Source: Petroclostridium xylanilyticum
Lineage (GTDB): Bacteria; Bacillota; Clostridia; SK-Y3
Length of the DNA stretch: 32,000 nt
Direction of reading: 5' to 3'
NCBI RefSeq assembly: GCF_002252565.1
Contig: NZ_NPML01000018.1
Span: 271,907 to 303,906 of the forward strand
The position numbers and the translations under genes were made by a program. The notes beneath the pieces are model-generated. The model worked only from the letters and a program-made list of their open reading frames with translations. It did no database searches and was not told the origin of the DNA. This document shows positions 6,729 to 24,736 of the stretch, in pieces. Each line of letters begins with the position of its first letter. Positions within the stretch are counted from its first letter, which is position 1.

Positions 6729-6777
6729 ATATCCATATTGTAGGTTTTTGAGAAATTATGACAGGAGGTATATGATT

Positions 6778-9370: not shown

Positions 9371-9616
9371 TTATTTTATATATCCGCCATGAAAAGACAA
9401 TCTATATATTTCAATACCACCAAAGCATATTGCCTCATTCCCGTTAAACTCAGATATATCTCCCTGCCATGAACATTTATAAACAAACCCATCCTGTTCA
9501 AATAAAGCAGGTCCTCTGAATGGGTTTTCAACAGGAACTGCCTTTAATGCACTTTTCAAGCATTTGCTGAATCCTGGCGGAACTTCATCAACGAGCATCT
9601 TCCCATAGTAATTCAT
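9371..9616 (-). pseudogene. DUF5680-like gene, C-terminal half, separated from its N-terminal half by the composite transposon
   Basis: Encodes ...YGKMLVDEVPPGF...IYRLSFHGGYIK. Joined to 24736..24504 with one TAATTCAT copy removed, it gives a continuous 156-codon ORF. Confidence 0.8.
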
Positions 9617-11323
9617 GTGTGAGTAAAATATTTGTGGGTGACATTCAGGAATGATTCCCCGACGAGGGTTGCGAACTTTTGTTCGCGACGCTCGTCGGGG
9701 CCACCAAGCGAAGCGCGGTAGAAAAAAGCAAATGTCATGCAAAAAGGACTCTCTCCCTGCTATGATGGTGATGACCAACATCCATAAAACAGGAGGGAGA
9801 GAGTCCATGAAACATCTTACCACAGAATGGCCTTTATTAAAAGAGCTGGAGGAACAATTAGTCAGAACTCTTCAAAAGGTGTTCGCTGTCTTGTTGGCGG
9901 CCCTTTTGGAGGAGATTGATCAACAACTGGCGGAAGCGCGGGACAAGCGCCGGTATCAGCTGAAAGACAAACGGCCGACCACGATCCAAACGCTGTTTGG
10001 AGAAGTGACGTTTCGACGGAACTACTACTATGATCGGCAGGCGGGGGCGTATACCTTCTTGCTGGATGCCGAACTGGGCTTTGATGGAGCGCAGTCGATC
10101 AGCCCTTGCCTCGAGGAAACGGCGGTCGAGTTGGCCGTAGAGTGCTCTTCCTACCGCAAAGCGGCCCGTACGTTGGAGTCGATCGTGGGGTATGCGGTCA
10201 TGAGCCACGAGGCGATTCGCCAACTGGTGCTGGAGGCCCCTGTCTCGCTGCACCACCCTGTTTCCAAACGGCACGGCCGAGTGCTGTTTGTGGAGGCGGA
10301 TGGGCTGTTCATTTCCCGCCAGGGGAAAGGGAAACGGGCGAAAGAAGAGAAAATCCTGGCGGTTCACGAGGGATGGAAACGAAACGGTTCGCAGCTCAAG
10401 CTCGTGAACCGGCGCCACTACCTCCATGAAGGGGTGGGAGACGTGTGGGAACGGTTTGAAGAGTGGCTGATGAACGAATATGCCTATGACCCGTGCCGGG
10501 ACCTTTTGATCATCAACGGCGACGCGGCGTCGTGGATCACAGCCTGCCGGGAGTATTTTGGAAAGCGAGCCTGCTTTCAGCTGGATCGATTTCATGTGGC
10601 GCGGGAGCTGCGCCAATGCCTCTCCGGCCATCCGCGTTGGCGGGAGGTGCGGAAGAAGCTGGCGAAACAAGACGAAGAGGGGCTTCTGGTGGAGCTGAAC
10701 AGCGCGGTCGGCACGTTGGGGGACGAAGGCAAAGAACAACAGCTGGCCGCCTTGATTCGCCGGATCGAGTCGATGCCGGGATGCATCCGGGACTATCGGG
10801 AGTGGCTGTCGGAGCAAGGGGTGGAGACGACCGGCATGCGTCCGATGGGCCACGCCGAGAGCGTGATGAGCCGGTTTGCGCATCGGGTGAAATCCCGCCG
10901 CAGCTGGAAAGACCAAGGGCTTCGGGCGTTTCTGAGGGCGATGGCAGCCCGAATCGACGGGATCGGGTGGAGAAAGGGACGGTGGGAGGAGCAAGAGCCC
11001 CAGTCGGCCGTCTCGGCCTCAACAAAGTCCAAGCGGATCGAACAGGCCAAACGGAAGGCCGGACGGTTATGGGCAGATGTGGTGCGTCAGAATCTACCGT
11101 GTCTGCAGCGGTCATCCGGGACGCCGATCCATCAAGCGTTGTCGGCGCTCCGGGATGGTGGTTGGGTGTAAAAAAATGGAATATCGTATCATCGCCTCAA
11201 GATGAGGGATGAGAGTCCGAAAGCGCTTACGATATTAATTCCTGAAAATGGTTCGCTAACTAGTGATTGACAACGCCCGTAGTGAACCGAAAAAATGTTC
11301 TCCACAAAGTCTTGACTGACTCG
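9617..11323 (+). mobile_element. ISLre2-family insertion sequence, copy 1
   Basis: Boundaries are set by where it diverges from copy 2. Imperfect terminal inverted repeats share the TTTGTGG..GA.ACATT core. A structured leader hairpin lies at 9657-9700. Confidence 0.8.
9807..11171 (+). CDS. ISLre2-family (UPF0236) transposase
   Basis: ATG 9807 lies 9 nt after AGGAGGG. N-terminal pattern LKELEEQL...TLFGEVTFRRNYYYD...FLLDAELG is typical of ISLre2/UPF0236 transposases. Confidence 0.75.
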   Translation: MKHLTTEWPLLKELEEQLVRTLQKVFAVLLAALLEEIDQQLAEARDKRRYQLKDKRPTTIQTLFGEVTFRRNYYYDRQAGAYTFLLDAELGFDGAQSISPCLEETAVELAVECSSYRKAARTLESIVGYAVMSHEAIRQLVLEAPVSLHHPVSKRHGRVLFVEADGLFISRQGKGKRAKEEKILAVHEGWKRNGSQLKLVNRRHYLHEGVGDVWERFEEWLMNEYAYDPCRDLLIINGDAASWITACREYFGKRACFQLDRFHVARELRQCLSGHPRWREVRKKLAKQDEEGLLVELNSAVGTLGDEGKEQQLAALIRRIESMPGCIRDYREWLSEQGVETTGMRPMGHAESVMSRFAHRVKSRRSWKDQGLRAFLRAMAARIDGIGWRKGRWEEQEPQSAVSASTKSKRIEQAKRKAGRLWADVVRQNLPCLQRSSGTPIHQALSALRDGGWV

Positions 11324-11454
11324 GGCCGGAGATTTGCCACCGGCTTCCTTCAGATTCTACCTCGCGGTAGAGACCCTTGCCTTAAGCTAATGGCTACTAC
11401 TGCCTTCGCCATTCGGGACTTGAACCCTATAGATAACGCCCATGCCGGGCGCAC
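11324..11454 (-). mobile_element. Group II intron (bacterial class C) 5' domain-I fragment, truncated by ISLre2 copy 1
   Basis: The minus strand reads GTGCGCCCGGCATGGGCG..TCTATAGGGT..AGTCCCGAA..GAAGGCAG..GCAAGGGT..GAATCTGAAGGAAGC..GGCAAA. This closely parallels my recollection of the Oceanobacillus iheyensis IIC intron 5' end. It starts 5 nt after a terminator-like hairpin, the hallmark IIC insertion context. Confidence 0.7.
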
Positions 11455-11459
11455 ATAAA

Positions 11460-11498
11460 GGCTGCCTCGACGGCAGCCGTGTAGAATAAATTCTACAC
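11460..11498 (-). terminator. Two tandem hairpins (terminator motif) immediately upstream of the intron 5' end
   Basis: GGCTGCC-TCGAC-GGCAGCC (11460-11478) and GTGTAGAA-TAAA-TTCTACAC (11479-11498). On the minus strand these are followed by TTTAT and then GTGCG. Confidence 0.55.
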
Positions 11499-11611
11499 GG
11501 TTCACTCAAAAAGCAATTTGTCAACAGCCCCTTCAATGGGTTCCTTTTTTGTTTGATTTATTAACAAATTTAATTAATCGCATTGCAAATTCCAATTATT
11601 ATTTAATCATT

Positions 11612-13227
11612 GTGCGTGTCAAGATTCAGTAGGTGACCCCCACACACTAGCGAATTTCATGTTTTAGGCAACAATTGGTAACTTCTTTGTAAGTACACGT
11701 AGCACGTACTTGACCCATGGCTCATCTGCTGCTGGGCCATACAGCGCCGGTAAGCTGGCTCGCAGCCAGGCGGCCGGATCTTGACCGGGTAGCCGGCCTT
11801 CGGCACGGATGGGCTTGTCCCCAGCAACACGGCGGATCAGTTCGGGTTGTGCCTGCCAGACCTGCCGTGCCACTTCTGACAACTCGCCGTTAGCCCGTGC
11901 TGCCAGCAGGCGTGCGAGATGGTCAGCCCCTGTATTACTCCAACGGGCCCCGTGCCGCTTCATCCGACGGGCAACATGGTGGAACACCTGGCCCTCTATC
12001 GTGCCAAGACGCTCTGCTACTTTCTTCTGGCAGATCCCTTCCCAGTTCCCTTGCAAGTATCGACGCAGTTTTGTTATTCGCTGGCGTTTAGCTCCTTTGC
12101 TCGCTCGCTCAGCGGCCACCAGAGCTTTTTCTACCTCTGCCCAGTTCTCCTCCACAAGAGCAGCACTTACTGCCTTGTACGCCGCCTCATCATGGCCCAA
12201 ACCCTCCAATAATGCCCGCCGCAAGTGGTAGGGGTCCAACTGGTACGTTGCCCCTGGGAAATACTCACAACCCAGCTTCACCCATGGTGCGCCGTCACCA
12301 CCTACGCAGCAGTTCTCTACGGCAGAAAGGTCCCACTGCCGCCCAAATTGGGCTACTGCTTGCTCCCAGAATACCCGTGCTTCCGCTACTCCGGTGACTA
12401 CCCGGCGTCCCTGCAAACTCTGCCTATGCGGCCCCATACTCACCTTCCGTTCATACCCTACGCCAATTTTTATCGCTAATTTCCTTCGTTCCTTACAATT
12501 GTTGCGGGCCGCCACCCATACCTCATCTGCTTCTACCCGCAGGCTCTGGCTCTTCCGTCGCGCTTCTGGCACTTCTCCCCGGTCAAAAACCGCCGAGCGT
12601 TCTTGCTCTACCTGCTCCGCAAGCCTTTTCCCAGCCTCTTGTGCCTCTTGCCACAGGCTCATCGCTTGTATGTCTACTGCACCCAGCGTTACCTGTTTTA
12701 GCCAGGCAGCTGCCCGGTGGTACGGCATCTCCGCCGCTGCTGTCACCGCCAACTCTGTCGTCCACGGCGACAAGCGTTGCCGTGGCGCCAGGCCCAATGC
12801 TTCATCCAACAGATACCTGCCTTCTCCTGTCTCTTGATCCCGATAATACCTCCGCTCCAGCGCCACTTCTCCAAATGGCGTCACTATAACCCGGGGTTTT
12901 GTATGTACGAGCTTCAGCTGCTTCCTGTTCCTATCTCGCATTAGTTGTTCGTCCAGATAATTGCAAGCTGTCACTAACAACTTCAACGTTATCTTTTGCA
13001 CCAACCGGTAGATACCTTTCTCTAGTTCTGCAAAATCCTGGTAAGTGGTTATTAATCGATACATTTCTCGTATGACTAGCAGGATAATCTCCACAATGTC
13101 GCGAATCATCCACATGAGACCTCACCCTCCTTGGCTATTGTGTTAGGGGTGGTTGCCTGAGGAGACAACCGGTGAGGTCTCTTTTCTATTTCCGCCTCAC
13201 TTTCTCCTACTGAAATTTTACACGCTC
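11612..13227 (-). mobile_element. Second, divergent ISLre2-family insertion sequence
   Basis: Terminal inverted repeats GTGCGTGTCAAGATTCAGTAGG and GAGCGTGTAAAATTTCAGTAGG match at 18 of 22 positions. 9-bp direct repeat TTAATCATT at 11603-11611 and 13228-13236. Confidence 0.8.
11664..13115 (-). CDS. ISLre2-family (UPF0236) transposase
   Basis: 483-aa ORF behind AAGGAGGG. FAELEKGIY...TPFGEVALERRYYRD...YLLDEALGL parallels the transposase of the flanking IS copies but is clearly a different sequence. Confidence 0.75.
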   Translation of the reverse strand: MWMIRDIVEIILLVIREMYRLITTYQDFAELEKGIYRLVQKITLKLLVTACNYLDEQLMRDRNRKQLKLVHTKPRVIVTPFGEVALERRYYRDQETGEGRYLLDEALGLAPRQRLSPWTTELAVTAAAEMPYHRAAAWLKQVTLGAVDIQAMSLWQEAQEAGKRLAEQVEQERSAVFDRGEVPEARRKSQSLRVEADEVWVAARNNCKERRKLAIKIGVGYERKVSMGPHRQSLQGRRVVTGVAEARVFWEQAVAQFGRQWDLSAVENCCVGGDGAPWVKLGCEYFPGATYQLDPYHLRRALLEGLGHDEAAYKAVSAALVEENWAEVEKALVAAERASKGAKRQRITKLRRYLQGNWEGICQKKVAERLGTIEGQVFHHVARRMKRHGARWSNTGADHLARLLAARANGELSEVARQVWQAQPELIRRVAGDKPIRAEGRLPGQDPAAWLRASLPALYGPAADEPWVKYVLRVLTKKLPIVA

Positions 13228-13238
13228 TTAATCATTAA

Positions 13239-13284
13239 TTAACACAATTTTAATACTCCATTGATATATGTATGTTAATATAAG
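13239..13284 (+). promoter_or_regulatory. PhoP-box-like tetrad plus -10 element upstream of ptxA
   Basis: TTAACA-caatt-TTAATA-ctcca-TTGATA-tatgt-ATGTTA are hexamers every 11 bp (13239-13277), followed by TATAAG (13279-13284). This matches the Bacillus PhoP TT(A/T/C)ACA-N5 direct-repeat architecture. Confidence 0.4.
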
Positions 13285-13304
13285 AAACAAGGGGAGGTGA
13301 CAAC

Positions 13305-14084
13305 ATGGTATTGGAAGTGGAAAATCTCACGAAGAAATTTGACCACCTGGTGCTGGATCATATCAGTTTTCAAGTTTCCCAGGGTGAGTTTGTTGTCATT
13401 CTGGGTTCCAGCGGCGCGGGGAAATCAACCTTGATGAGATGCCTGAATGGCTTGATGGCGCCTACCAGCGGAAAGGTTAGGGTCCATGACATCGAGGTGT
13501 GCAAAAAAAACCTTCACAAGATCCGTCAAAAAGTAGGTTTTATTTTTCAGAATTTCAACGTCATCGGGAATTTGACCGTGATGCAGAATGTGCTGATCGG
13601 CCTGCTGGGAACCAAATCGTTTTGGAACATTTTTTTCACCAAGGAAGAAAAAAAGATCGCGGAAGAAGCGATTGAACTGGTGGGTTTAAAGGACAAAATT
13701 TACACGCGTGTTGAGAAATTGAGCGGGGGGCAAAAACAAAGAGTGGCTATCGCCAGGGTGCTGGTGCAGAAACCCGATGTGATTCTCGCGGATGAGCCGG
13801 TCTCCAACTTGGATCCGGTCATCAGCCGGGAAATCCTCGATATTTTGCGGAACATCAACGAAAGCAAAGGAACGGTGGTCATTTGTAACCTGCATCAACT
13901 CGAATACGCAGTAGAGTATGGCCATCGGATCATCGGCATTCACAGCGGAAAAGTGGTTTTTGACGGCAACCCCCAGGTAATGCGGGAGCAAGACTTAGCC
14001 CGGATATATGGGGAAAAGTTTGTGCAAAACGAAATACGGAAGCCTAATCGATCGTTACTGAAAAGAGAACTAGTTCAAGTATAA
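13305..14084 (+). CDS. ptxA: PhnC/PtxA-type phosphonate/phosphite ABC transporter ATP-binding protein
   Basis: Walker A GSSGAGKST, signature LSGGQKQRVAIAR, Walker B ILADEP, and the PhnC-type NLHQLEYA block. GGGGAGG RBS. Confidence 0.85.
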   Translation: MVLEVENLTKKFDHLVLDHISFQVSQGEFVVILGSSGAGKSTLMRCLNGLMAPTSGKVRVHDIEVCKKNLHKIRQKVGFIFQNFNVIGNLTVMQNVLIGLLGTKSFWNIFFTKEEKKIAEEAIELVGLKDKIYTRVEKLSGGQKQRVAIARVLVQKPDVILADEPVSNLDPVISREILDILRNINESKGTVVICNLHQLEYAVEYGHRIIGIHSGKVVFDGNPQVMREQDLARIYGEKFVQNEIRKPNRSLLKRELVQV

Positions 14085-14099
14085 TGGAGGGAAGCGGAC

Positions 14100-14999
14100 A
14101 TGAAAAAAACAGGAGTATTGGTAATCATCACGACATTATTGATTTCTCTGTTGTCCGGTTGCGGCGGGGAGAAGTCTGGGGCAGGAGCGGCAAAATCGGG
14201 GATTGATCCGAACCCAGCAAAATTGAGGATAGCTCTTCTGCCCGACGAATCACCTTCCACGGTAATCAAAAACAATGAAGGATTAAGGAATTATTTGGCG
14301 AAAACTTTAAATAAAGAAATCGAACTCGTCGTAACGACCGACTATTCTTCGATGATCGAAGCGATGCGCAAAGGGCATATCGAGGTTGCTTATTTCGGGC
14401 CTCTATCTTATGTACTGCTCAAGCAAAAGATGGAAAATGTCGAGCCGTTCGCCGCCAAGCTCGATAAAGGGGCGCCCACTTATAACGCGGTAGTCATCGC
14501 AGGAGCGAATACGGGTATCGCCCAATTAAGCGACATCAAAGGGAAAACTGTCGCTTTCGGAGATGCTGCCTCCACCTCAAGCCATTTGATCCCGAAGGAA
14601 ATGCTTAAAAATGCCGGTTTGGAAGCGGAAAAAGACTACAAACAACAGTTTGTCGGAGCACACGACGCTGTAGCGATAGCTGTGCAAAACGGCAATGCCG
14701 AGGCCGGCGGGCTCAGCAAACCGATCTTTGATTCCCTCGTGGAAAAAGGCACTATTGATAAAAACAAGGTGAAGGTCATCGCAGTATCCAAGCCGTATCC
14801 AAATTATCCATGGGTCATGAACAGTGAACTCGATCCGCAATTGAAAGAATCGATTAAAAAGGCGCTGTACGATTTGAAGGACAAAGATGTCCTCAAGCCG
14901 TTAAAAGCCGAAGGTTTCGTGCCGATTACTGATAAAGATTTTGATGTCATTCGCGATATGGTAAAATCGCTTGGCATCGATCTGGAGGAGGTACAATGA
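14100..14999 (+). CDS. ptxB: PhnD/PtxB-type periplasmic-binding lipoprotein for phosphite/phosphonate
   Basis: Lipobox LLSGC after a signal peptide. PhnD-family blocks are LRIALLPDES, TDYSSMIEAMRKGHIEVAYFGP and IKGKTVAFGDAASTSSHLIP. Confidence 0.8.
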   Translation: MKKTGVLVIITTLLISLLSGCGGEKSGAGAAKSGIDPNPAKLRIALLPDESPSTVIKNNEGLRNYLAKTLNKEIELVVTTDYSSMIEAMRKGHIEVAYFGPLSYVLLKQKMENVEPFAAKLDKGAPTYNAVVIAGANTGIAQLSDIKGKTVAFGDAASTSSHLIPKEMLKNAGLEAEKDYKQQFVGAHDAVAIAVQNGNAEAGGLSKPIFDSLVEKGTIDKNKVKVIAVSKPYPNYPWVMNSELDPQLKESIKKALYDLKDKDVLKPLKAEGFVPITDKDFDVIRDMVKSLGIDLEEVQ

Positions 15000-15835
15000 G
15001 TGTAATCAATGCGTCGGCTGCTTCTATCAAATCGCACAGCGGATCAGTCTTGATGAACGGATGGTTTTTCATTATCCTGATCGGAGCGGTGTTAATCCTA
15101 GGCTCCTTGTTTTACACCTTGAATGTCAGTTGGGACTTGCTTGCTAACAGCAGAACGCTAAGCAATTTCATATCGACTGTCGGAGAAATGTTTCCGCCCA
15201 ATTTCGCCGTTGTGCCCACATTGGGGAAAGCGATCGTGGAAACTCTTGTAATGAGTGTTATGGCTACGATTCTTGCCGTTTTCTTATCGTTTCCTCTCAG
15301 CTTTTTGGCGGCGGAAAAAACATCGCTCCATCCCTCGGTTTGCTATATGGCCAAAGGCATATTTAACGCGTTGCGGACGATTCCTGAACTTATCATGGCG
15401 ATTATCTTTGTGGCTTCCGTCGGCTTCGGAATTCTTCCGGGAATTCTCGCGCTGGGAATCCATTCGGCCGGGATGCTCGGGAAGTTTTATGCGGAAGCGA
15501 TCGAAAAAGTGGACACCGGCTTGATCGAGGCGGTTGAGTCTTCGGGTGGATCGCGTTTTCATGTCATCGTCTTCAGCGTAATCCCTCAGATAGTAAGCCA
15601 TTGCATTGACTTTACTTTGTACCGGTGGGAATACAATTTCCGCGCCTCGACGGTCGTCGGCATGATCGGCGCGGGCGGAATCGGCTTTCAATTAATCACT
15701 TCTCTGCGGATCATGCAGTACCAAGATGTTCTTGCGATTCTTGCGGTTGTGTTTGTGATGGTGCAGTTGGTCGACGCGTTCGGGAATATGATTCGCAGAA
15801 AATTATTGTTTGGGGAGAGTGGTACAAACAGATGA
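14996..15835 (+). CDS. ptxC: PhnE/PtxC-type ABC transporter permease
   Basis: Multi-TM ORF whose start overlaps the ptxB stop (ATGA). PhnE C-terminal block YRWEYNFRASTVVGMIGAGGIGFQL. Confidence 0.8.
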   Translation: MSVINASAASIKSHSGSVLMNGWFFIILIGAVLILGSLFYTLNVSWDLLANSRTLSNFISTVGEMFPPNFAVVPTLGKAIVETLVMSVMATILAVFLSFPLSFLAAEKTSLHPSVCYMAKGIFNALRTIPELIMAIIFVASVGFGILPGILALGIHSAGMLGKFYAEAIEKVDTGLIEAVESSGGSRFHVIVFSVIPQIVSHCIDFTLYRWEYNFRASTVVGMIGAGGIGFQLITSLRIMQYQDVLAILAVVFVMVQLVDAFGNMIRRKLLFGESGTNR

Positions 15836-16842
15836 GCAGACCAAGGGTGTTTATTTCACACTGGATGCCGCAAATCGGTGTTGATATGATTAAAGAGTAT
15901 TGTGAAGTCGATTATTACGACGGGATAGAGCCTTTATCCAAAGAAGCCTTTATCGCTAGAGCCAAGAAGGCTGATGCGGTGCTCGCTTTCGTATGCGACA
16001 CCATTGATGAGGAAGTTCTGCAAAGCTGCCCGAACGTGCGGGTGATCAGCAGTTTCGGTAAAGGGTTCGATAATATTGATGTGGAAGCTTGTACCAGGCA
16101 CAATATACTGGTGACGATTAATCCCGATGCGCTGACGGAATCTACGGCGGATTTGGCGATCGGATTGCTCCTATCGGTTTCCCGCAATATTTTAGCCGGC
16201 GACCGTCATGTGCGCAACAGGGAATTTAAAGGTTGGCATGCGGTTCATTGTCTAGGCCGCGACTTTCATCATTCCAAGTTGGGGATCATCGGATTTGGTG
16301 CCATCGGCCGGGCGATCGCAAAGCGCGCCAAAGGCTTTGACGTTGAGATATCCTATTATGATGTTCGCAGATTTCCGGAAATGGAAGATCATCTGGGAGC
16401 GAGGTATATCGAATTGCCCGCACTGCTCAGCGAAAATGATTATGTGGTAGTGGCTGTCGATCTCCGGCCGGAAAACTATCATCTGATTGACCGGGAAGAG
16501 CTCGAATTGATGAAGAAGGATAGCTTTTTAATCAATATCAGCCGGGGATCGATCGTGAATGAGCAAGCCGTAGCGGAAGCTTTAGAGCAGGGCCGTTTGC
16601 GGGGATACGCTGCAGATGTTTTTGAGTTTGAAGATACGATTATCAAGAACCGTCCGTCGTATATTGCCGAAGCACTTTTAAGACAAGAACAGAAGACGGT
16701 ATTTACCCCTCACATTGGCACTGGCACCATTGAAGCAAGGGAAAGATTGGCTGTCTCCAGCGCCACTCAATTGCTGACTGCACTGCAAGGGAAAATTCCT
16801 TCCGGAGCAATAAATCAAATAAAACTCGACCCTATGATTTGA
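15832..16842 (+). CDS. ptxD: NAD-dependent phosphite dehydrogenase (D-2-hydroxyacid dehydrogenase superfamily)
   Basis: ATG 15832 overlaps the ptxC stop (ATGA). Rossmann motif GIIGFGAIG. GKGFDNIDVEACT, GYAADVFEFED and TVFTPHIGTG parallel my recollection of Pseudomonas stutzeri PtxD (LKGFDNFDVDACT, GYAADVFEMED, TLFTPHIGSA). Operon context with phnCDE-like genes. Confidence 0.75.
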   Translation: MSRPRVFISHWMPQIGVDMIKEYCEVDYYDGIEPLSKEAFIARAKKADAVLAFVCDTIDEEVLQSCPNVRVISSFGKGFDNIDVEACTRHNILVTINPDALTESTADLAIGLLLSVSRNILAGDRHVRNREFKGWHAVHCLGRDFHHSKLGIIGFGAIGRAIAKRAKGFDVEISYYDVRRFPEMEDHLGARYIELPALLSENDYVVVAVDLRPENYHLIDREELELMKKDSFLINISRGSIVNEQAVAEALEQGRLRGYAADVFEFEDTIIKNRPSYIAEALLRQEQKTVFTPHIGTGTIEARERLAVSSATQLLTALQGKIPSGAINQIKLDPMI

Positions 16843-16848
16843 TTATAT

Positions 16849-18734
16849 CTCACATTTCGCACCCTCTCGACAAAAATCGGGAGGATTTTTTTATCTTCCT
16901 GTCGAATAAAACCTTGGAATACAAGGAAAGCAAAGGAGTTTGCTCATCATGGACGTTCAAATTCGGGCCATTTATGAAAGTTCTTATTTGAATATAATAA
17001 GCGCCCTGTTCAAAGATCTTGACCTTCCTCAGTTGATTGATCGTCTCGTTCCCGTGGATCCGCAATGCCAAACTCGAGCCAGCGATATCGTCAAACTAAT
17101 CGTTCTGGATATCTTGAGCGGCCGGCAAGCGCTCGTTCATTTGGAACAATGGGCGCATGACATCGATTTGCCGAAGCTGATTCGGCCAGGACTGGAGCCG
17201 TCTTGGTTCAACGACGATGCCATCGCGCGTCATTTGGATCGCCTGTATGAGGCGAATATCCATCAAGTCCTTTCGTCTTGCCTCGTGCAGATCTACAAGA
17301 AAGAAGGCCTCTCTCTTCGCGTCTTCCACGCCGATACGACGGACAAGACCGTTTATGGCGCGTATGAATCGGCCTCGCCGGATGCCTTGCAGATTACGCA
17401 TGGCTACAACCGGCATCATCGTTGGCAAAAGCAGATCGGATTTGGGCTGATTGGCAACGAGGATGGCATCCCGTTTTATGGCGATGTACACGACGGCAAC
17501 CTGCCGGATAAGACGTGGAATCCCGAGGTGTTGTCCCGTGTGCAGAAACAGCTGAAGCAGGCGAAGATCGAAGATGAATGGATTTATGTTGCCGATTCTG
17601 CCGCCATGACGAAAGACACACTGGCGCAAACGAAGGCCGCCAACGCCTTTTTGATCACAAGAGGCCCTTCTTCGCTCCGGATCGTCAAAACCGCGCTGGC
17701 TAAAGCTGATGCCCAAGACACGCCGTGGAGCGATCCGTTCTCCTTAGCGGAGAAAAACGGAGCCACCTACCGGGTGTGGGAAACGACATCGACGTACGAA
17801 GGTCATTCGGTCCGGTTGATCGTCGTTGAATCCAGCGCGCTCGACCAACGAAAAGGAAAGACGCTCGAAAAAGAGCGAAACCAAGAAGCAGAGCTTCTTC
17901 GGCAGAAACAAACCCAGTGGGAAAGCCGTCTGTTTTCGTGCCGGGAAGACGCCGAACAAGCCCTAGCGTCTCTAAAGGCGTCCCTTCGTCTCCGGTTCCA
18001 TCGCGTCGAGGCGTCGGTCGAAGCGATCGTGCGTCCGAAAAAACGGCGCGGACGTCCGAAAAAAGGGGCGGAACCGGACATGGAAACGCTGTACGCCCTT
18101 CGCTTGAACGTGGAATTCGACCAAGATGCGTGGGAACAGGCGAGACGGAAAGCGTCCCGGTTTGTCCTTGTCACGACCGTTCCGGAGGAATGGAAAGGTC
18201 AACCGATGGATGCGAAAGAGATCTTGAAGTTGTATAAAGGCCAAATCTCGGTGGAAATGAACTTCTCTTTCTTGAAAGACCCGTTCTTTACGGATGAGAT
18301 TTACGTAAAAAAACCGGAACGGGTCGCGGTATTGGGCTATTTGTTTCTGTTGGCCTTGGCGATTTACCGCGTCTTCCAGCGCCGGGTGCGTCAGTTCATC
18401 ACCCCGGAACACCCATTAAAGGGCGCGGGAGGCCGGAAACTGACCCGACCGACCGGACAAGCGATTTTTCAATTGTTTTGGTATGTCAGAGTCGTCCTGT
18501 TGGAACTGCCGGATGGACGAATTCAACGCGCGTTAGGTCAACCGCTCACGTACGAGCAGCGAAGGATTCTGCAAGGATTAGGGATGGACGAGAGCATTTA
18601 CGTCTAATGGGATAAAGAACGACCAGCGATGGTAAAAAAAGGATACCATCGCTTTTGGTGTTGGTTTAAAAGTTATTCTAAAAAACTGAATAAAAAATCC
18701 TTTTGTTCCGCCCTACCAAGGTGCGAAATATGAG
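16849..18734 (+). mobile_element. IS1634-family insertion sequence (element 1)
   Basis: Terminal inverted repeats CTCACATTTCGCACC and CTCATATTTCGCACC match at 14 of 15 positions. 6-bp direct repeat TTATAT at 16843-16848 and 18735-18740. Confidence 0.8.
16949..18607 (+). CDS. IS1634-family (IS4-like DDE, DUF4277 N-terminus) transposase
   Basis: ATG 16949 lies 10 nt after AAAGGAG. 552-aa ORF whose length and layout are typical of IS1634-group transposases. Confidence 0.7.
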   Translation: MDVQIRAIYESSYLNIISALFKDLDLPQLIDRLVPVDPQCQTRASDIVKLIVLDILSGRQALVHLEQWAHDIDLPKLIRPGLEPSWFNDDAIARHLDRLYEANIHQVLSSCLVQIYKKEGLSLRVFHADTTDKTVYGAYESASPDALQITHGYNRHHRWQKQIGFGLIGNEDGIPFYGDVHDGNLPDKTWNPEVLSRVQKQLKQAKIEDEWIYVADSAAMTKDTLAQTKAANAFLITRGPSSLRIVKTALAKADAQDTPWSDPFSLAEKNGATYRVWETTSTYEGHSVRLIVVESSALDQRKGKTLEKERNQEAELLRQKQTQWESRLFSCREDAEQALASLKASLRLRFHRVEASVEAIVRPKKRRGRPKKGAEPDMETLYALRLNVEFDQDAWEQARRKASRFVLVTTVPEEWKGQPMDAKEILKLYKGQISVEMNFSFLKDPFFTDEIYVKKPERVAVLGYLFLLALAIYRVFQRRVRQFITPEHPLKGAGGRKLTRPTGQAIFQLFWYVRVVLLELPDGRIQRALGQPLTYEQRRILQGLGMDESIYV

Positions 18735-18748
18735 TTATATAATTGCGC

Positions 18749-18782
18749 AAAAGGTTGGACGTGTGATCATCCGGCCTTTTTT
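18749..18782 (+). terminator. Probable original ptx operon terminator, displaced by the IS insertion
   Basis: AAAAGGTTGG (loop of 12 nt) CCGGCCTTTTTT. The stem has two G-U pairs. Without the IS it would lie 8 nt after the ptxD stop region. Confidence 0.4.
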
Positions 18783-18860
18783 GGCTCCGCGAAAGTTCAT
18801 TGTTTAAATTATACAGCTTTTTTATAAGTTCCTTTAATAAAATGCTCTATTTTATTAATA

Positions 18861-19775
18861 TTACATTCCGCCGAATTTAACACGCACATATTCCATAAAG
18901 GTGTATGCGGCAAGGGATTGCGACATCGTTTTATCGAGGACCAAATAAAAATTTCGACGCAAATGGATTCCCTTGATCTTAAGAATTTGCAATGTCTTCA
19001 ATTGCAGTTCTTTACGAATTGCGAATCTCGACAAAATGGAGAAACCTATTCCCGATTCGACCGCGGCTTTCACCGATTCGGTGTTGCCCAATTCCAAAAC
19101 CACATTTAATTCTTCAGGATTCAAATCGATCTTCCTCAGGCTTTCGTTAATGACCTGGCGTGTTCCGGAACCAGGCTCTCTTAGGATGAGAGGCAGCGAA
19201 AATAAATCATGAGGTGTCAGCACCCCTTTACTAGCGAGCAGGGGGTGCTGATTTTGTGTGGAACTGATGACAACCAGCTCGTCCTCAAGAAAAGGGTAAC
19301 TTTCAATTTCCGGGTTAGATACCGGAGCTTCCACGAAACCGATATGAATCTCCTGCTTCAATAATTGCTCCACGATATGGAGGGAATTGCCGATTTTCAT
19401 CCGCAGGTTAACCTTGGGATAGTCGAGCTTAAATATTCCCAGCACATACGGAAGAATATGTTCTCCGATCGTTGTGCTGGCCCCTATAAATAAATCGCCA
19501 TGAATGGAATTTGAAAGTACTGTCAGTTCCTTTTCCGCGTCATGAACGAGTTGAAAGATTCTCTCCGCGTATCTCAGCAGAACTTTTCCATAATCGGTCA
19601 ATTTGATTGTTCTTGTCGTCCTTTCAAATAACTTGACTTTCAAGGCTTCCTCCAGCTGCTGGATTTGCAAACTGACCGAGGGCTGGGAAAGATGAAGTAT
19701 TTTTGCAGTTTCTGAAAAATTCCGTTTGGTTGCTGCGATATAAAACACGCGCAAATGATCCAGATTCATTGTCAT
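18861..19775 (-). CDS. LysR-family transcriptional regulator, possibly PtxE-like
   Basis: N-terminal HTH (LRVFYIAATKRNFSETAKILHLSQPSVSLQIQQLE) and a LysR substrate-binding domain. It sits next to the ptx genes, convergent with them. Confidence 0.8.
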   Translation of the reverse strand: MTMNLDHLRVFYIAATKRNFSETAKILHLSQPSVSLQIQQLEEALKVKLFERTTRTIKLTDYGKVLLRYAERIFQLVHDAEKELTVLSNSIHGDLFIGASTTIGEHILPYVLGIFKLDYPKVNLRMKIGNSLHIVEQLLKQEIHIGFVEAPVSNPEIESYPFLEDELVVISSTQNQHPLLASKGVLTPHDLFSLPLILREPGSGTRQVINESLRKIDLNPEELNVVLELGNTESVKAAVESGIGFSILSRFAIRKELQLKTLQILKIKGIHLRRNFYLVLDKTMSQSLAAYTFMEYVRVKFGGM

Positions 19776-19972
19776 TACTCCTGTCCTTCTTTTTACCTAT
19801 CCAAAGTATAGTCCTTAAGTGTTAAAGCTGGATAAAATAAGAAAATTCATTTAACCCCTGAATCCGTGATAGTTCTTCTGTGAAAAAGAAGAAAAAGAAA
19901 GGAAATCGCATCTCCGATGGTGAATTTTAAAGGAACCATGAATGATCCACTTTCACCTGCGAGGTGCTACAT

Positions 19973-20080
19973 ATGAGAATCCAATTCACCCAATCTAAGG
20001 AAATTCTGTTGACTACGCATGCTGGCCTGGCCACCGTCGGCGCCTTGCTTTCCCATACCCGATTGCCGCAGCGTCTCAAT
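19973..20080 (+). pseudogene. IS1380-family transposase, N-terminal 36 codons, cut off by the IS1634 insertion
   Basis: MRIQFTQSKEILLTTHAGLATVGALLSHTRLPQRLN continues in frame at 22010 (RSTVKGMENPIHSHGDV...) once 20081-22009 is removed. Confidence 0.65.
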
Positions 20081-22004
20081 CCCGAGTTCGACAGTTGCTA
20101 GGTAAATGAAATGCCCGTCATCCCTTGAGTAGACTGGATTTTCGGGCATTCATACGCAAAATGGCGTGTATCTATGCTCCAGGGTGGATTTCGAGGAACC
20201 TTGGAGGAGCTTCAATCCCAAGCGTATCAAAGGTTTTCCGTTGTTTGGCCGTCAGTTCCGTAGTCTGGTAGACGTCTCCGTTTTTCGAAGAAAAATGTCC
20301 GAGACCGATGCGATCCAGTTCCTTTCGCACGGCTGCCCAGGTCTCGCCGGTTTCCACTTCGACGATGCGCACGAGCAACAGGGCCAGCCAACAAAGCAGG
20401 ATATGCGCCCGAATGCGTTCTTCCAGGCGATGAAACATCGGGCGAAGTTCCAGGGTCGTCTTCAATGTACGGAACGCATCTTCCACATCAATGAGTTGCT
20501 TGTAGCCAAGCGCCACGTCTTCTGCGGATAACGTGTCATCCGAAGTCCGGATCAAATACTTGCCGTCATACTTTTCGGCCTCGCGTATCGCTTGCTTATC
20601 CAGCTTCAGCGTTCCATCCTTGAGCTGGCGCAAATATTTGCCGTAGGTCGGATGGGAACGCAGCTTACACGCCGCCTTCGTATGGGCGTGACCGCCCAAC
20701 GGCTTCAGTTCGTCCAACTCCGCTTGCAGGCGCTCGATCATCTGTTCACGGCGAAGACGATCCCGTTCGGCTTCTTTGGGGTTGTACACCAAGACATAGC
20801 GCTTGCGCGCTTCGCCGTCGCCGATGACGATGTCTTTGACCTGCAGGTTTTCTCGCACTTGGTGGTATCGCCCTTTCCGGCTCATCGCGGCCTCCGTCGT
20901 TTCTTTGCCGGATCGCATTTTTTCCCCGACGATATAATGGCCGCCTGTACGCTGCAACGTGCGCAAATTGTCTTCGGAGGAGAACCCTCGATCCATGACC
21001 GTAATGACTCTGCCCAGTTTCCATCCGACCAGGTCGCGTTTCACCTGCTCGACGACGGACATATCCGATGTATTCCCCGGCCATACCCATGAACGGATCG
21101 GAATGCCTTGACGAGTGACCGCCAGTCCAATGACCACCTGAACCAGATCCGGGCGTTTGTCCTTCGAAAATCCCTGCTTGCGCAAGGAGTCGTCTTCCGG
21201 CACATCGAACGGATCGACTTCGAAGTAGGTGGAGGTGGTGTCGAAGTAGAGCAAATCGACCTCCAGATTCAGTAAATCCGAGACGGAGCAATATACCTGA
21301 ACCTCCAGCTCCGATTGAACCTCCAGCAGGTCGTCCATCGCCCGGTACAGTTGCTGGCTGTTCACTTCCCTTACGCCCGGCAGGTACACATCGTCCCTTA
21401 CCCAATCTTCCATCGCCAGCTTGCTGGAAGGGTTCAGCGCGCGATTGGCCACCATGGCGAAGATCAGGCGTTCGATGGACGTTTGATGTTTGCGATCCGC
21501 GAACAGTTTTTCAAGGATGGCATCCAGGCCGATCTTGTGCCACAGTTGATGAAGCAGCCAGGCTCCACCCAAGCGTTTGCAGGACTGAAAGAGGAACTCC
21601 GCCGTCTGGCCGATCGCATGTTGCGCCTTCAGCGCCGCTTCCGGCGTCAGGTAACGAGAAATGCTTTGCACCAGGCGCTCCAGGACGGAGCGATCAACTT
21701 CATCTTCCCGGCCGAACGAGTAGATGACCTTGGCTTTGGCGTGTTTGGCGACGGGATCCCATACATTGTGCGCCAGCTGGAGGTAGGCGGTCGTGGATCC
21801 ATTTTTATTTTTACGAGAGACGCGACGAATATACATGCCTATATATTACCACAAATAACCCATATTTTACAAGAGTAAAAATACGAAAGCGTGTGCCTAT
21901 GGAAAAATGAGATTTTTTCTAGCTCCGCTCACAGAAAACCTTGCTGTTATGGGATTCTTGATTTTCTATATGCCCAAAAATGCCGATTTACTGTCGAACT
22001 CGGG
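20081..22004 (-). mobile_element. IS1634-family insertion sequence (element 2), nested in the IS1380 remnant
   Basis: Perfect 15-bp terminal inverted repeats, CCCGAGTTCGACAGT at 20081-20095 and its complement at 21990-22004. 5-bp direct repeat TCAAT at 20076-20080 and 22005-22009. Confidence 0.85.
20172..21836 (-). CDS. IS1634-family transposase
   Basis: 554-aa ORF starting MYIRRVSRKNKNGSTTAYLQLAHNVWD, the characteristic IS1634-family N-terminus. Confidence 0.8.
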   Translation of the reverse strand: MYIRRVSRKNKNGSTTAYLQLAHNVWDPVAKHAKAKVIYSFGREDEVDRSVLERLVQSISRYLTPEAALKAQHAIGQTAEFLFQSCKRLGGAWLLHQLWHKIGLDAILEKLFADRKHQTSIERLIFAMVANRALNPSSKLAMEDWVRDDVYLPGVREVNSQQLYRAMDDLLEVQSELEVQVYCSVSDLLNLEVDLLYFDTTSTYFEVDPFDVPEDDSLRKQGFSKDKRPDLVQVVIGLAVTRQGIPIRSWVWPGNTSDMSVVEQVKRDLVGWKLGRVITVMDRGFSSEDNLRTLQRTGGHYIVGEKMRSGKETTEAAMSRKGRYHQVRENLQVKDIVIGDGEARKRYVLVYNPKEAERDRLRREQMIERLQAELDELKPLGGHAHTKAACKLRSHPTYGKYLRQLKDGTLKLDKQAIREAEKYDGKYLIRTSDDTLSAEDVALGYKQLIDVEDAFRTLKTTLELRPMFHRLEERIRAHILLCWLALLLVRIVEVETGETWAAVRKELDRIGLGHFSSKNGDVYQTTELTAKQRKTFDTLGIEAPPRFLEIHPGA

Positions 22005-22009
22005 TCAAT

Positions 22010-22796
22010 CGCTCCACCGTGAAAGGAATGGAGAACCCGATTCACAGTCATGGCGATGTCATGACCAGCTATCTTGGCTTGCTTTGCCAAGGCAAAAGCG
22101 ACTTCGACCACATCGAACCTTTCCGAAAAGATCCCGTATTCCAAACCTGCCTCGGTGTCCGCAAGGTGCCGTCAAGCCCGACGCTCCGTCAGCGTCTGGA
22201 TGCCGCAGCTCAAACGATGAATGCCAACTGGAACGAGATCCTGCTTCAAGAATCCGCCGATCTGATTCGAAACGTAAAAGCACCTGTAACCGGACTGACA
22301 GCAGGCGAGCATACGGTGATTCCGCTGGATATCGATGTCTCTCCGTTCGATAACTCCGGTACGAAAAAAGAGGGTGTTTCGTTGACCTACAAAGGCACGT
22401 TCGGCTACGCCCCCATTTTCGCCTACCTCGGACAGGAGGGGTATAGCGTGAATGTGCAGCTTCGGGAAGGCAGCACGCACAGTCAGAAGGATGGCGCTGA
22501 TTTTCTGCGCGAAAGCATCCAGTATGCCCGGCGCATCACGAAAGAGCGCCTTCTCGTGCGGATGGATTCCGCTCACGACAGTCTGGAAAATCTGCAGGTG
22601 TGTCATGCTGAGCCAGAGGTCGATTATATCATCAAGGTCAATCTGCGCAATACATCCAAGGAAAGTTGGCTACGGATCGCCGAAGACAAGGGCATGGCCT
22701 GTGAGCAGCGCCCCGGCAAGACGGAATACATGGGCGTGATCGCCTTTCCCGAAAAAGGCTTCGATCAAGCCCTTCGTCAAGTGTTTCAAGTGATCG
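22010..22796 (+). pseudogene. IS1380-family transposase, central part, 3'-truncated by ISLre2 copy 2
   Basis: GLLCQGKSDFDHIEPFRKDPVFQTCLGVRKVPSSPTLRQRLD is an IS1380-type block. The ORF runs straight into the IS end at 22797. Confidence 0.65.
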
Positions 22797-24503
22797 GTGT
22801 GAGTAAAATATTTGTGGGTGACATTCAGGAATGATTCCCCGACGAGGGTTGCGAACTTTTGTTCGCGACGCTCGTCGGGGCCACCAAGCGAAGCGCGGTA
22901 GAAAAAAGCAAATGTCATGCAAAAAGGACTCTCTCCCTGCTATGATGGTGATGACCAACATCCATAAAACAGGAGGGAGAGAGTCCATGAAACATCTTAC
23001 CACAGAATGGCCTTTATTAAAAGAGCTGGAGGAACAATTAGTCAGAACTCTTCAAAAGGTGTTCGCTGTCTTGTTGGCGGCCCTTTTGGAGGAGATTGAT
23101 CAACAACTGGCGGAAGCGCGGGACAAGCGCCGGTATCAGCTGAAAGACAAACGGCCGACCACGATCCAAACGCTGTTTGGAGAAGTGACGTTTCGACGGA
23201 ACTACTACTATGATCGGCAGGCGGGGGCGTATACCTTCTTGCTGGATGCCGAACTGGGCTTTGATGGAGCGCAGTCGATCAGCCCTTGCCTCGAGGAAAC
23301 GGCGGTCGAGTTGGCCGTAGAGTGCTCTTCCTACCGCAAAGCGGCCCGTACGTTGGAGTCGATCGTGGGGTATGCGGTCATGAGCCACGAGGCGATTCGC
23401 CAACTGGTGCTGGAGGCCCCTGTCTCGCTGCACCACCCTGTTTCCAAACGGCACGGCCGAGTGCTGTTTGTGGAGGCGGATGGGCTGTTCATTTCCCGCC
23501 AGGGGAAAGGGAAACGGGCGAAAGAAGAGAAAATCCTGGCGGTTCACGAGGGATGGAAACGAAACGGTTCGCAGCTCAAGCTCGTGAACCGGCGCCACTA
23601 CCTCCATGAAGGGGTGGGAGACGTGTGGGAACGGTTTGAAGAGTGGCTGATGAACGAATATGCCTATGACCCGTGCCGGGACCTTTTGATCATCAACGGC
23701 GACGCGGCGTCGTGGATCACAGCCTGCCGGGAGTATTTTGGAAAGCGAGCCTGCTTTCAGCTGGATCGATTTCATGTGGCGCGGGAGCTGCGCCAATGCC
23801 TCTCCGGCCATCCGCGTTGGCGGGAGGTGCGGAAGAAGCTGGCGAAACAAGACGAAGAGGGGCTTCTGGTGGAGCTGAACAGCGCGGTCGGCACGTTGGG
23901 GGACGAAGGCAAAGAACAACAGCTGGCCGCCTTGATTCGCCGGATCGAGTCGATGCCGGGATGCATCCGGGACTATCGGGAGTGGCTGTCGGAGCAAGGG
24001 GTGGAGACGACCGGCATGCGTCCGATGGGCCACGCCGAGAGCGTGATGAGCCGGTTTGCGCATCGGGTGAAATCCCGCCGCAGCTGGAAAGACCAAGGGC
24101 TTCGGGCGTTTCTGAGGGCGATGGCAGCCCGAATCGACGGGATCGGGTGGAGAAAGGGACGGTGGGAGGAGCAAGAGCCCCAGTCGGCCGTCTCGGCCTC
24201 AACAAAGTCCAAGCGGATCGAACAGGCCAAACGGAAGGCCGGACGGTTATGGGCAGATGTGGTGCGTCAGAATCTACCGTGTCTGCAGCGGTCATCCGGG
24301 ACGCCGATCCATCAAGCGTTGTCGGCGCTCCGGGATGGTGGTTGGGTGTAAAAAAATGGAATATCGTATCATCGCCTCAAGATGAGGGATGAGAGTCCGA
24401 AAGCGCTTACGATATTAATTCCTGAAAATGGTTCGCTAACTAGTGATTGACAACGCCCGTAGTGAACCGAAAAAATGTTCTCCACAAAGTCTTGACTGAC
24501 TCG
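22797..24503 (+). mobile_element. ISLre2-family insertion sequence, copy 2 (identical to 9617-11323)
   Basis: Constant offset of 13180 bp to copy 1. All six-frame ORFs translate identically in both copies. Confidence 0.8.
22987..24351 (+). CDS. ISLre2-family (UPF0236) transposase
   Basis: Identical to the 9807-11171 product. Confidence 0.75.
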   Translation: MKHLTTEWPLLKELEEQLVRTLQKVFAVLLAALLEEIDQQLAEARDKRRYQLKDKRPTTIQTLFGEVTFRRNYYYDRQAGAYTFLLDAELGFDGAQSISPCLEETAVELAVECSSYRKAARTLESIVGYAVMSHEAIRQLVLEAPVSLHHPVSKRHGRVLFVEADGLFISRQGKGKRAKEEKILAVHEGWKRNGSQLKLVNRRHYLHEGVGDVWERFEEWLMNEYAYDPCRDLLIINGDAASWITACREYFGKRACFQLDRFHVARELRQCLSGHPRWREVRKKLAKQDEEGLLVELNSAVGTLGDEGKEQQLAALIRRIESMPGCIRDYREWLSEQGVETTGMRPMGHAESVMSRFAHRVKSRRSWKDQGLRAFLRAMAARIDGIGWRKGRWEEQEPQSAVSASTKSKRIEQAKRKAGRLWADVVRQNLPCLQRSSGTPIHQALSALRDGGWV

Positions 24504-24736
24504 TAATTCATCCCCCATATGGGCTTTTGATTTTCAAATACCACTTCTTCACCAATAAAATCAGCACTCCCGAAGTAAGAGTCTATGTACAGTAAATCCC
24601 CTTCACCATAATGTAAATCCTTTGAGTTCGGTCTTGAAGATGCAGAAAGAACTCCGTCCCTGGCATATGTATTCCTTTTTGCTCTGACCAGAAATCCTTT
24701 CAAAGCCAATTCTGTGCAGTTCATTGCCTTCGTCAC
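24504..24736 (-). pseudogene. DUF5680-like gene, N-terminal half
   Basis: (M)TKAMNCTELALKGFLVRAKRNTYA...KPIWGMNY ends at the TAATTCAT duplication and continues at 9616. Confidence 0.8.

Follow-up and report, generated by a model that had tools for sequence, protein, structure and literature searches.

A probable composite transposon bounded by ISLre2-family insertion sequences and carrying a candidate phosphite operon in the chromosome of Petroclostridium xylanilyticum

The oilfield bacterium Petroclostridium xylanilyticum degrades xylan and has a genome of 3.86 Mb with a GC content of 37.2% (NPML00000000; PMC11318147). In a 32,000-nt stretch of its contig NZ_NPML01000018.1 (the window, to which coordinates refer unless stated otherwise), two identical copies of an insertion sequence (IS) of the ISLre2 family enclose a ptxABCD-type operon, a gene for a LysR-family regulator, a remnant of a group II intron and four further ISs (tnp2, IS1634a, IS1634b and a partial IS1380), the whole interrupting a DUF5680 gene. 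Six of the proteins encoded in the window match RefSeq proteins of this species exactly, and five of these have consecutive accessions (WP_094549734 to ..746). The segment probably represents a 14,886-bp class-I composite transposon that was built up by stepwise IS accretion in thermophilic Firmicute donors and then entered the DUF5680 gene in a single transposition of the entire unit. Contigs used for comparison are cited by L numbers where they have to be told apart.

Bounding insertion sequences and the insertion site

The two bounding copies are located at positions 9617-11322 and 22797-24502, both on the plus strand, and each contains a coding sequence (CDS) for a 454-aa transposase (9807-11171 and 22987-24351, respectively). 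The original prediction of a direct repeat whose identity ends exactly at the four junctions is borne out, positions 9617-11323 and 22797-24503 being 100% identical over 1707 bp, but the element proper is 1706 bp and not 1707 bp in length. The G at 11323/24503 is the last base common to the two copies but belongs to the flank: nine further copies of this IS, from metagenome contigs and from five Geobacillus plasmids, terminate in ...GACTC (...CTTGACTGACTC) and are followed by a variable base (A, C, T or G), which places the end of the element at 1706 bp. Only with these ends are an in-register alignment of the terminal inverted repeats (IRs) and the terminal C of the family obtained. The IRs are imperfect, approximately 30 bp long (20/30 positions matching), and the element reads 5'-G...C-3'.

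Members of the ISLre2 family encode Mutator-like DDE transposases (p-MULT3), generate direct repeats of 8-9 bp, possess IRs between 18 and 39 bp in length that end in a conserved cytosine, transpose via circular intermediates and, at more than 20% of sites, show a preference for positions 13-17 bp upstream of sigma-A promoters, with a set orientation (Guerillot et al., 2014; PMC3942029). The predicted assignment of the repeat to this family holds, since the transposase scores 347.9 bits against the NCBIfam model NF033529 (ISLre2; cut-off 200) and the IRs, terminal C and 9-bp direct repeat all fit; a score of 629.9 bits is also obtained against Pfam PF06782 (UPF0236; cut-off 24.3), and the exact protein is named 'ISLre2 family transposase' in RefSeq. 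Direct repeats of 9 bp are found around the composite element itself, around tnp2 in its interior, around a second unit on a metagenome contig (c1773; see below) and around a copy of the IS on the G. zalihae plasmid pJS1-2. An IRR-IRL circle junction, in which the right and left IRs of the element would abut, was not seen in any contig examined.

Over its full length the bounding IS is 95-98.7% identical at the nucleotide level to copies on Geobacillus and Parageobacillus plasmids that are annotated as 'ISLre2-like element ISGsp3 family', and the named members of the 90% protein cluster to which its transposase belongs (533 members) are nearly all from Geobacillus. In common with these ISGsp3/ISLre2 elements, the Petroclostridium copies are 1706 bp in length, have the ends GTGTGAG...GACTC and are associated with a 9-bp direct repeat; they differ in residing in a strictly anaerobic member of the Clostridia and in forming a pair that appears to mobilise 11.5 kb. 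The copy on pJS1-2 (L116) is an independent simple insertion with a perfect 9-bp target site duplication (TSD). TSDs are absent from four of the five Geobacillus plasmid copies, two of which share swapped flanks. Among the rep_cluster_349 plasmids pJS1-2, pGARCT (L117) and pGt35 (L118), only pJS1-2 has kept the 9-bp duplication, and the copy on pGt35 combines the left flank found in pGARCT with the right flank found in pJS1-2, an arrangement that, at the level of sequence, provides direct evidence of recombination between copies of the IS on these plasmids.

Immediately outside the IS pair lies the TSD GTAATTCAT, at 9608-9616 and 24503-24511. An 8-bp outer repeat, TAATTCAT, had originally been predicted at 9609-9616 and 24504-24511 and is present there; with the IS end placed at 1706 bp, the duplication lengthens to the 9 bp of GTAATTCAT. 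It is confined to the outer flanks, the inner flanks, GGGCCGGAG... and ...AAGTGATCG, being mutually unrelated. When the outer flanks are joined and one copy of the duplication is omitted, an unbroken minus-strand open reading frame (ORF) is restored (...QKPIWGMNYYGKMLVDE...), as had been foreseen. It comprises 152 aa from an ATG at 24724, or 156 codons from an upstream GTG, and matches Pfam DUF5680 with an E-value of 1.4e-33; the 3' part of this host gene is at 9371-9616 and the 5' part at 24503-24724. The expected compositional contrast is likewise evident, with a GC content of 51.3% for the block and of 35.1% and 27.9% for its flanks.

The empty site, an intact DUF5680 gene with one copy of the repeat, had been proposed as a check on the insertion and is present in contigs from at least six JGI metagenomes, which were reached via a neighbouring DUF1848 protein and a 92-aa neighbour. 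These contigs (among them L013, L014 and L102-L105) match window positions 29128-24503 and 9616-4944 at 99.7-100%, the two alignments overlap by exactly 9 nt, and the intact gene encodes 152 aa and contains a single GTAATTCAT. More diverged empty sites (72-95% nucleotide identity) occur in 13 genomes of thermophilic Clostridia, including Thermoanaerobacterium saccharolyticum, Lutispora thermophila, Caloramator and Fervidicella. The left outer junction is independently present in one Logan contig (L011), and comparison of the host flanks with plasmids gave no useful match. The locus combines identical IS copies around cargo devoid of transposition functions for those ends, a duplication on the outer side only and an empty-site allele, as is expected of a composite transposon.

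Cargo genes, interior elements and precursor arrangements

The metabolic operon that the original prediction had placed in the block is identified as ptxABCD accompanied by a LysR-family gene. On the plus strand are ptxA, encoding an ATPase (13305-14084; TIGR02315, 296.5 bits, cut-off 266.1), ptxB, a binding protein (14100-14999; TIGR01098, 235.7 bits, cut-off 112), ptxC, a permease (14996-15835; TIGR01097, 265 bits, cut-off 216.7), and ptxD, a candidate NAD-dependent phosphite dehydrogenase of 336 aa (15832-16842). The genes overlap or abut (14996/14999 and 15832/15835), and the first three specify a PhnCDE-type ABC transporter just upstream of the dehydrogenase. Convergent with ptxD on the minus strand is the gene for a ptxE-like regulator of 304 aa (18861-19775; Pfam HTH_1 and LysR_substrate).

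In a genome scan with a concatenated PtxD and DUF5680 query, the best matches to PtxD, with 98% aa identity, came from Paenibacillus naphthalenovorans PR-N1 (L022) and Cohnella thermotolerans DSM 17683 (L023); the next-best matches, at 64-67%, are in Paenibacillus alkalitolerans, Ammoniphilus and a metagenome-assembled genome of the Clostridia. Compared with these donors, none of the five cargo genes is disrupted, PtxA, PtxB and PtxC having kept the donor-gene lengths with 4-10 aa differences, and the LysR protein is 100% identical to the Paenibacillaceae protein WP_027093490.1. The Geobacillus-like IS together with an operon that is nearest to that of Paenibacillaceae supports a thermophilic or thermotolerant Bacillales source for the cargo, in line with the Bacillales-like thermophile that had been suggested from the sequence. 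Between L022 and L023, the 7.2-kb block of truncated istA, intron remnant, ptxABCD, lysR and IS1380 is 99.99% identical and lies on short contigs ending in repeats; this degree of identity across two genera indicates recent exchange of the ptx block among Paenibacillaceae, where, with a GC content of 46%, it may be foreign too.

Both donors represent an arrangement that precedes most of the interior insertions. They match the window at 100% over 11320-11611, resume directly at 13228-16839 (99.2%), where one copy of TTAATCATT is present but tnp2 is not, continue to 18735-20081 at 99.9% without IS1634a, and then enter IS1380 without IS1634b; clean empty sites are recovered in this way for tnp2, IS1634a and IS1634b. 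The first of these, tnp2, is a second ISLre2-family element, of 1616 bp, on the minus strand (11612-13227; CDS 11664-13115, 483 aa). It is flanked by the 9-bp TSD TTAATCATT at 11603-11611 and 13228-13236, its IRs match at 20/30 positions and its transposase scores 305.3 bits against NF033529, with only 29.6% aa identity to the transposase of the bounding IS. The native AT-rich sequence with hairpins upstream of ptxA (11455-11611) was continuous with 13228-13304 before tnp2 entered: it is found at 100% identity in L022, L023 and L106-L108, where 13228 follows directly.

IS1634a (16849-18734, plus strand; CDS 16940-18607; NF033559, 314 bits) is situated at the ptxD stop codon with the 6-bp TSD TTATAT and is not found in L022, L023 or L111. 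The adjoining positions 16836-16848 differ from L023 6005-6016 by a 5-bp TGATT duplication and one substitution, which turn the PtxD C-terminus ...LDPRII of the donors into ...LDPMI in the window. IS1634b (20082-22004, minus strand; CDS 20172-21836; NF033559, 409 bits) is unrelated to IS1634a and is nested in IS1380, with the TSD TCAATC at 20076-20081 and 22005-22010; its boundaries and 6-bp TSD were set against L023, which passes directly from 20081 into the sequence of 22011. The IS1380 transposase gene itself is on the plus strand, its N-terminal part (19973-20081) resuming at 22011 in a middle part (22011-22796; model positions 43-292 of 419) that is cut by copy 2. When IS1634b is removed the frame is unbroken, and the fragment scores 199 bits against NF033539.

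Later stages are represented in metagenomes. In L107 (Logan SRR10854626), IS1634b is present and an intact IS1380 transposase gene of 419 aa extends across the site occupied in the window by copy 2 (...CAAGTGATCG|TACGGACG). The junction between truncated IS1380 and the bounding IS occurs in at least eight metagenome contigs, and many contigs have the right IS copy only; this exact junction gave no matches in the genome-contig collection, where the P. xylanilyticum locus was not returned either, apparently because it is masked. The right flank of L003, considered as a continuation of IS1380, was rejected since the intact IS1380 in L107 continues otherwise. Three contigs carry a different right flank, GCGAAGGAC....

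The group II intron remnant next to copy 1 is 131 nt in length (11324-11454, minus strand) and starts with GUGCG at 11454; apart from this motif it retains ~130 nt of domain I. It matches Rfam RF02001 (D1D4-3) with 42.4 bits, the genuine match consisting only of the 5' ~46 nt (11371-11324). At the remnant, GTGCGCCCGG stands after a terminator-like hairpin, and two such hairpins, CCGTGTAGAATTTATTCTACACGG and GCTGCCGTCGAGGCAGC, are found directly 5' of the intron GUGCG (11455-11530, minus strand). Class C bacterial group II introns home downstream of terminators, an arrangement that these hairpins fit. Neither an ORF for an intron-encoded protein (reverse transcriptase) nor domains D5/D6 are present in the window or the donors, and the element is not a complete intron. 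In the donors the intron is likewise a remnant, of ~155 nt, in which only ~12 nt beyond the window sequence precede a truncated plus-strand istA of the IS21 family, which resembles the istA of B. thuringiensis to residue ~457 before the alignment fails. An intact group II intron in Cohnella, suggested by a full-length Rfam match, was rejected because the 3' half of that match is istA coding sequence. Matches to RF02001 1-170 above the gathering score are obtained both at window 11286-11371, spanning the IS junction, and at L023 2012-2168; their 3' halves are unrelated, being IS end in the one and istA coding sequence in the other, recruited to close a helix over a large deletion, and such 'full-length' hits call for caution.

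Judged by these alignments, copy 1 is inserted 6-12 nt inside an intron remnant that was already truncated. The original prediction that the inner junctions cut an intron and an IS1380 transposase gene is formally correct, IS1380 being truncated by copy 2, but copy 1 met a ~155-nt remnant rather than an intact intron. Similarly, of the donor arrangement it proposed, IS1380 does continue across the copy-2 site (in L107), but on the far side of copy 1 the intron goes on for only ~12 nt.

Origin of the element and function of its cargo

The proposed history begins with an ancestral block like that in Paenibacillaceae, consisting of truncated IS21 istA, the 5' intron remnant, ptxABCD, the convergent LysR gene and IS1380. 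IS1634b would have inserted into IS1380 (TCAATC) and IS1634a at the ptxD stop (TTATAT), an ISGsp3-like IS would have entered IS1380 to become the right copy, tnp2 would have entered a site 77 bp upstream of ptxA (TSD TTAATCATT), and finally a second ISGsp3-like copy would have entered the intron remnant to become the left copy, both the order of these insertions and the vector of entry into Petroclostridium being matters of inference. The predicted junctions of such a donor are TATTCCTCGGGCCGGAG|GTGTGAGTAAAATA on the left and GACTGACTC|AAGTGATCGTACGGACG on the right. The Mutator-like DDE transposase would then act on the left IR (IRL) of copy 1 and the right IR (IRR) of copy 2, moving everything between them into codon ~83 of the DUF5680 gene, in a low-GC accessory island, with duplication of 9 bp (GTAATTCAT). 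The movement of the composite into DUF5680 as a unit, as originally proposed, is supported by its structure, the outer TSD, the empty site and the precursor states.

A second mobilisation is apparent in contig SRR28822788_1773 (c1773, L002; 21,368 bp), whose flanks have a GC content of 42-46%, indicating a different host. Here, a unit of 12,777 bp extends from the outer IR of tnp2 on the left to the right IR of the bounding IS on the right. The 9-bp repeat ACCATCATC is found directly outside both ends (chance ~4e-6) and the inner side of tnp2 is still adjoined by its earlier TTAATCATT, which argues that the whole 12,777-bp unit moved. A 108-bp deletion at L002 9827/9828 (window 22705/22814) took 91 bp from the end of the IS1380 fragment and 17 bp from the start of the IS, and with its left IR deleted that copy should no longer be mobile alone. 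The outer IR of tnp2 matches the IRL of the bounding IS at 18/30 positions, compared with 20/30 for the IS's own IRs. These sequences suggest that the transposase of the bounding IS used the outer IR of tnp2 as a surrogate left end, and that the ptx cargo has repeatedly transposed as a unit with different pairs of ends. The arrangement resembles ISEcp1-type mobilisation in joining the element's own right IR to a similar, non-cognate IR, here 12.8 kb away, but the surrogate end is a real IR of a related family member instead of a chance sequence, the transposase family differs and the c1773 case is based on one 9-bp direct repeat. No empty site was found for the c1773 event; the predicted one is TTTCCTAAAACCATCATCTTAAAATGATGATC, and an exact scan of JGI metagenomes with the left flank gave 0 matches.

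Three mutually exclusive readings of the Petroclostridium structure can be considered, namely transposition as a unit, recombination in two steps and an artefact of assembly. In the two-step reading, which appears unlikely, a lone ISGsp3-like IS inserted into DUF5680 with the 9-bp duplication, and a circle containing the IS and the cargo, which could have been looped out of a donor composite or been plasmid-borne, later integrated by homologous recombination. This route yields the exact structure observed, and the two cannot be formally separated on that basis; the 100% identity of the bounding copies, the inter-IS recombination on Geobacillus plasmids (TSDs lost and flanks swapped among L116, L117 and L118) and the existence of module arrangements that look tandem or are circularly permuted (L107) are all consistent with it. 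It requires, however, that a foreign IS be acquired twice, independently, where transposition of the unit needs a single acquisition, and a lone bounding IS was not found at the DUF5680 site, every other allele found being empty. Nor would recombination with a resident identical IS explain the second TSD-flanked unit, in c1773, the ends of which are non-identical.

Besides the identity of the two end products and the recombination seen on plasmids, several negative results count against transposition as a unit. A donor state with both IS copies was not found, unlike every other intermediate, and the exact junction of IS and intron gave 0 matches in JGI metagenomes. Searches for the right outer junction in an independent contig, using the truncated DUF5680 N-terminal ORF and the 92-aa neighbour as queries, returned only empty sites, and a homology search with the restored 140-aa flank protein of c1773 returned only the interrupted allele of that contig. 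Nor was a sigma-A promoter seen at a distance of 13-17 bp from the composite or from tnp2; the sole promoter-like site near the composite begins 30 nt from the IS end, such sites occurring at chance frequency, and promoter-targeted insertion is unsupported, although a tendency described for more than 20% of sites does not strictly define the family. Transposition of the composite as a unit is nevertheless considered the probable course of events.

The function of the cargo is a separate matter, independent of these structural alternatives. From homology and context, it is inferred to be an assimilatory phosphite system of the ptxABCD(E) type, in which PtxABC would import phosphite, PtxD would oxidise it to phosphate with NAD+ and the LysR protein would act as regulator. 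The models for comparison are the assimilatory ptxABCDE operons of Pseudomonas stutzeri WM88 and Ralstonia sp. 4506, with the structures 4E5K and 6IH2. The order of ATPase, binding protein, permease and an enzyme of the D-2-hydroxyacid dehydrogenase family, together with a LysR gene, is shared with these operons, as are the catalytic Arg/Glu/His and the PtxD-type Lys; the window differs in that the regulator gene is convergent rather than co-directional, in its Firmicute lineage and in the moderate similarity of its PtxD, known here by sequence, to the characterised enzymes (272 bits to 6IH2). The best-matching solved structures are phosphite dehydrogenases (6IH2, 5.9e-80; also 4E5K), and plasmid homologues annotated as phosphonate dehydrogenase share 42-45% aa identity with the window protein.

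It is unlikely that the dehydrogenase is instead a glyoxylate/hydroxypyruvate reductase and the transporter one for an organophosphonate or another oxyanion, such that the cargo would not be a phosphite operon. That assignment draws on the best NCBIfam match of the enzyme, to the glyoxylate reductase model PRK13243 (294 bits, under its cut-off), on the score of a Pyrococcus glyoxylate reductase (260 bits), which is close to that of 6IH2, and on matches of the LysR protein to a 'selenium metabolism-associated' model and of PtxB also to a putative selenate-binding model; moreover, NCBI names the window PtxD only as 'NAD(P)-dependent oxidoreductase'. Yet the gene order and content are those of ptxABCD(E), and the top three and 11 further PDB matches are phosphite dehydrogenases. 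The protein also has the PtxD active-site state, with Lys in GKGFDN (Val in glyoxylate reductases), and both diagnostic indels, namely the lack of a 4-residue insertion preceding the conserved Trp, itself retained, and the presence of the FEFEDTIIKNRPSYI segment that is absent from glyoxylate reductases. C-P lyase and phosphonatase genes are absent among the profile-searched proteins of the block. In dissimilatory phosphite clusters, ptdC/F/G/H/I adjoin ptxDE (PMC10746228); no ptd genes are present between or around the ptx genes, and all of the block's ORFs of 80 aa or longer are accounted for.

An artefact of assembly, with one IS in DUF5680 and cargo from elsewhere or from a plasmid threaded between collapsed repeat copies, is highly improbable: although a 1.7-kb exact repeat is beyond short-read resolution, metagenome contigs break at IS ends (L004, L007-L009, L011) and the right outer junction lacks independent support, the genome is that of an isolate with the window on a 479-kb contig, a segment of 11.5 kb that is bounded by ISs and lacks a replication gene is implausible as a separate replicon, alternative outer flanks for the junction of IS and intron were not found, and the structure, with its TSD on the outer side only, is in every respect that of a real insertion.

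Relation to known systems and neighbouring arrangements

Composite transposons with metabolic operons are already well known, and the Petroclostridium element is of an ordinary kind that leaves the understanding of such transposons unchanged. Like composites of the Tn5/Tn9/Tn10 type, it has paired ISs around unrelated cargo, a duplication on the outer side only, a precise empty site and IS copies that appear to have inserted independently before acting jointly; it differs in being bounded by ISLre2-family elements (Mutator-like, p-MULT3) in direct orientation and in containing four other ISs. As far as the citing account describes them, the chlorate-reduction composite transposons of Proteobacteria, often on plasmids (Clark et al., 2013, cited in PMC10746228), are similar in that a niche oxyanion operon spreads between taxa within IS boundaries with an IS content that varies by host, and different in IS families, cargo and phylum. 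Neither a ptx-bearing composite transposon nor one bounded by ISLre2-family elements was found described in the literature searched.

The interest of the element lies in the completeness with which its history can be reconstructed, in the transfer of a phosphite system and in the possible use of heterologous ends. Public data provide a near-complete natural history of operon capture, from the empty site through an IS-free ancestor and one-IS intermediates to the final composite, with probable transfer of a phosphite system from Bacilli to Clostridia. ISLre2-family (Mutator-like) ISs can evidently serve as the arms of a composite transposon, provided that transposition occurred in one event as proposed here. 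Assimilatory phosphite oxidation is probable in this oilfield anaerobe and in several thermophile communities, which bears on the cycling of reduced phosphorus; the recipient should be able to use phosphite as a phosphorus source, and natural PtxD variants of thermotolerant hosts are wanted for cofactor regeneration and as selection markers.

A broader and more tentative view, somewhat less likely to be correct than not to be, is that the ptx block constitutes a promiscuous 'phosphite-utilisation transposon' that passes between Firmicutes, both thermophilic and thermotolerant, in oil reservoirs, composts and digesters, and that is moved repeatedly by any bracketing pair of ISLre2-family ends. 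Non-cognate ends would be included, namely an IR of tnp2 with one of the ISGsp3-like IS, the latter element having already been deprived of its left end. If so, Mutator-like prokaryotic transposases would tolerate heterologous or surrogate ends (those of elements whose transposases are only ~30% identical) and could move units exceeding 12 kb. Capture of cargo by the ISLre2 family would then be documented for the first time, and a strict anaerobe would have had a route by which to gain assimilatory phosphite oxidation from aerobic Bacillales.

Other arrangements of the ptx module were also encountered. The order in L107 is lysR-IS1380::IS1634b-88aa-93aa-IS21 istA'-ptxABCD and that in L110 (JGI 3300010340) is ptxD-IS21-DUF6431-lysR-IS1634b; the two look circularly permuted, pointing to a module that, in some communities, is arrayed in tandem or forms a circle of ~14 kb. 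In L003 (1-320) and L004 (1-30), homology to the window begins at the ptxA ribosome-binding site (13293), and upstream of ptxA a gene of high GC content, encoding a PBP_like_2 binding protein, takes the place of the AT-rich promoter region; by this comparison they are a recombinant version of the operon with the downstream IS set unchanged. In L010 (2057-2214; Logan SRR28876213), the right end of the IS is fused directly to internal tnp2 sequence at position 12677 of the window (12677-12833, 100%), reflecting either insertion of the IS into a copy of tnp2 or loss of 1.35 kb next to the IS from the arrangement seen in the window. Several bioreactor and sludge contigs have ptxABCD bracketed by IS21 elements.

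The region into which the composite inserted has mobile features of its own. To the left of the target island, on the minus strand at 446-5112, are Tn7-like tnsA, tnsB and tnsC genes (TnsA_N/C, Mu-transpos_C and AAA_22/TniB domains). Contig L012 carries diverged tnsABC genes (67-69%) and an adjacent 153-aa gene at 12684-16528, beside a DUF1848/DUF5680 block whose two sides, as divided by the insertion site, match the window at 99.3% and at only 83%, indicating that the target island is itself mosaic and mobile. Genes for a KAP-family P-loop NTPase of 1260 aa and for a tyrosine integrase lie in the very AT-rich right flank (25845-30806; 22-28% GC), which, with an NYN-domain gene at 6604-7563, looks like an accessory or defence-type island. 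This island is found at 85-93% identity in Lutispora thermophila and Thermoanaerobacterium saccharolyticum.

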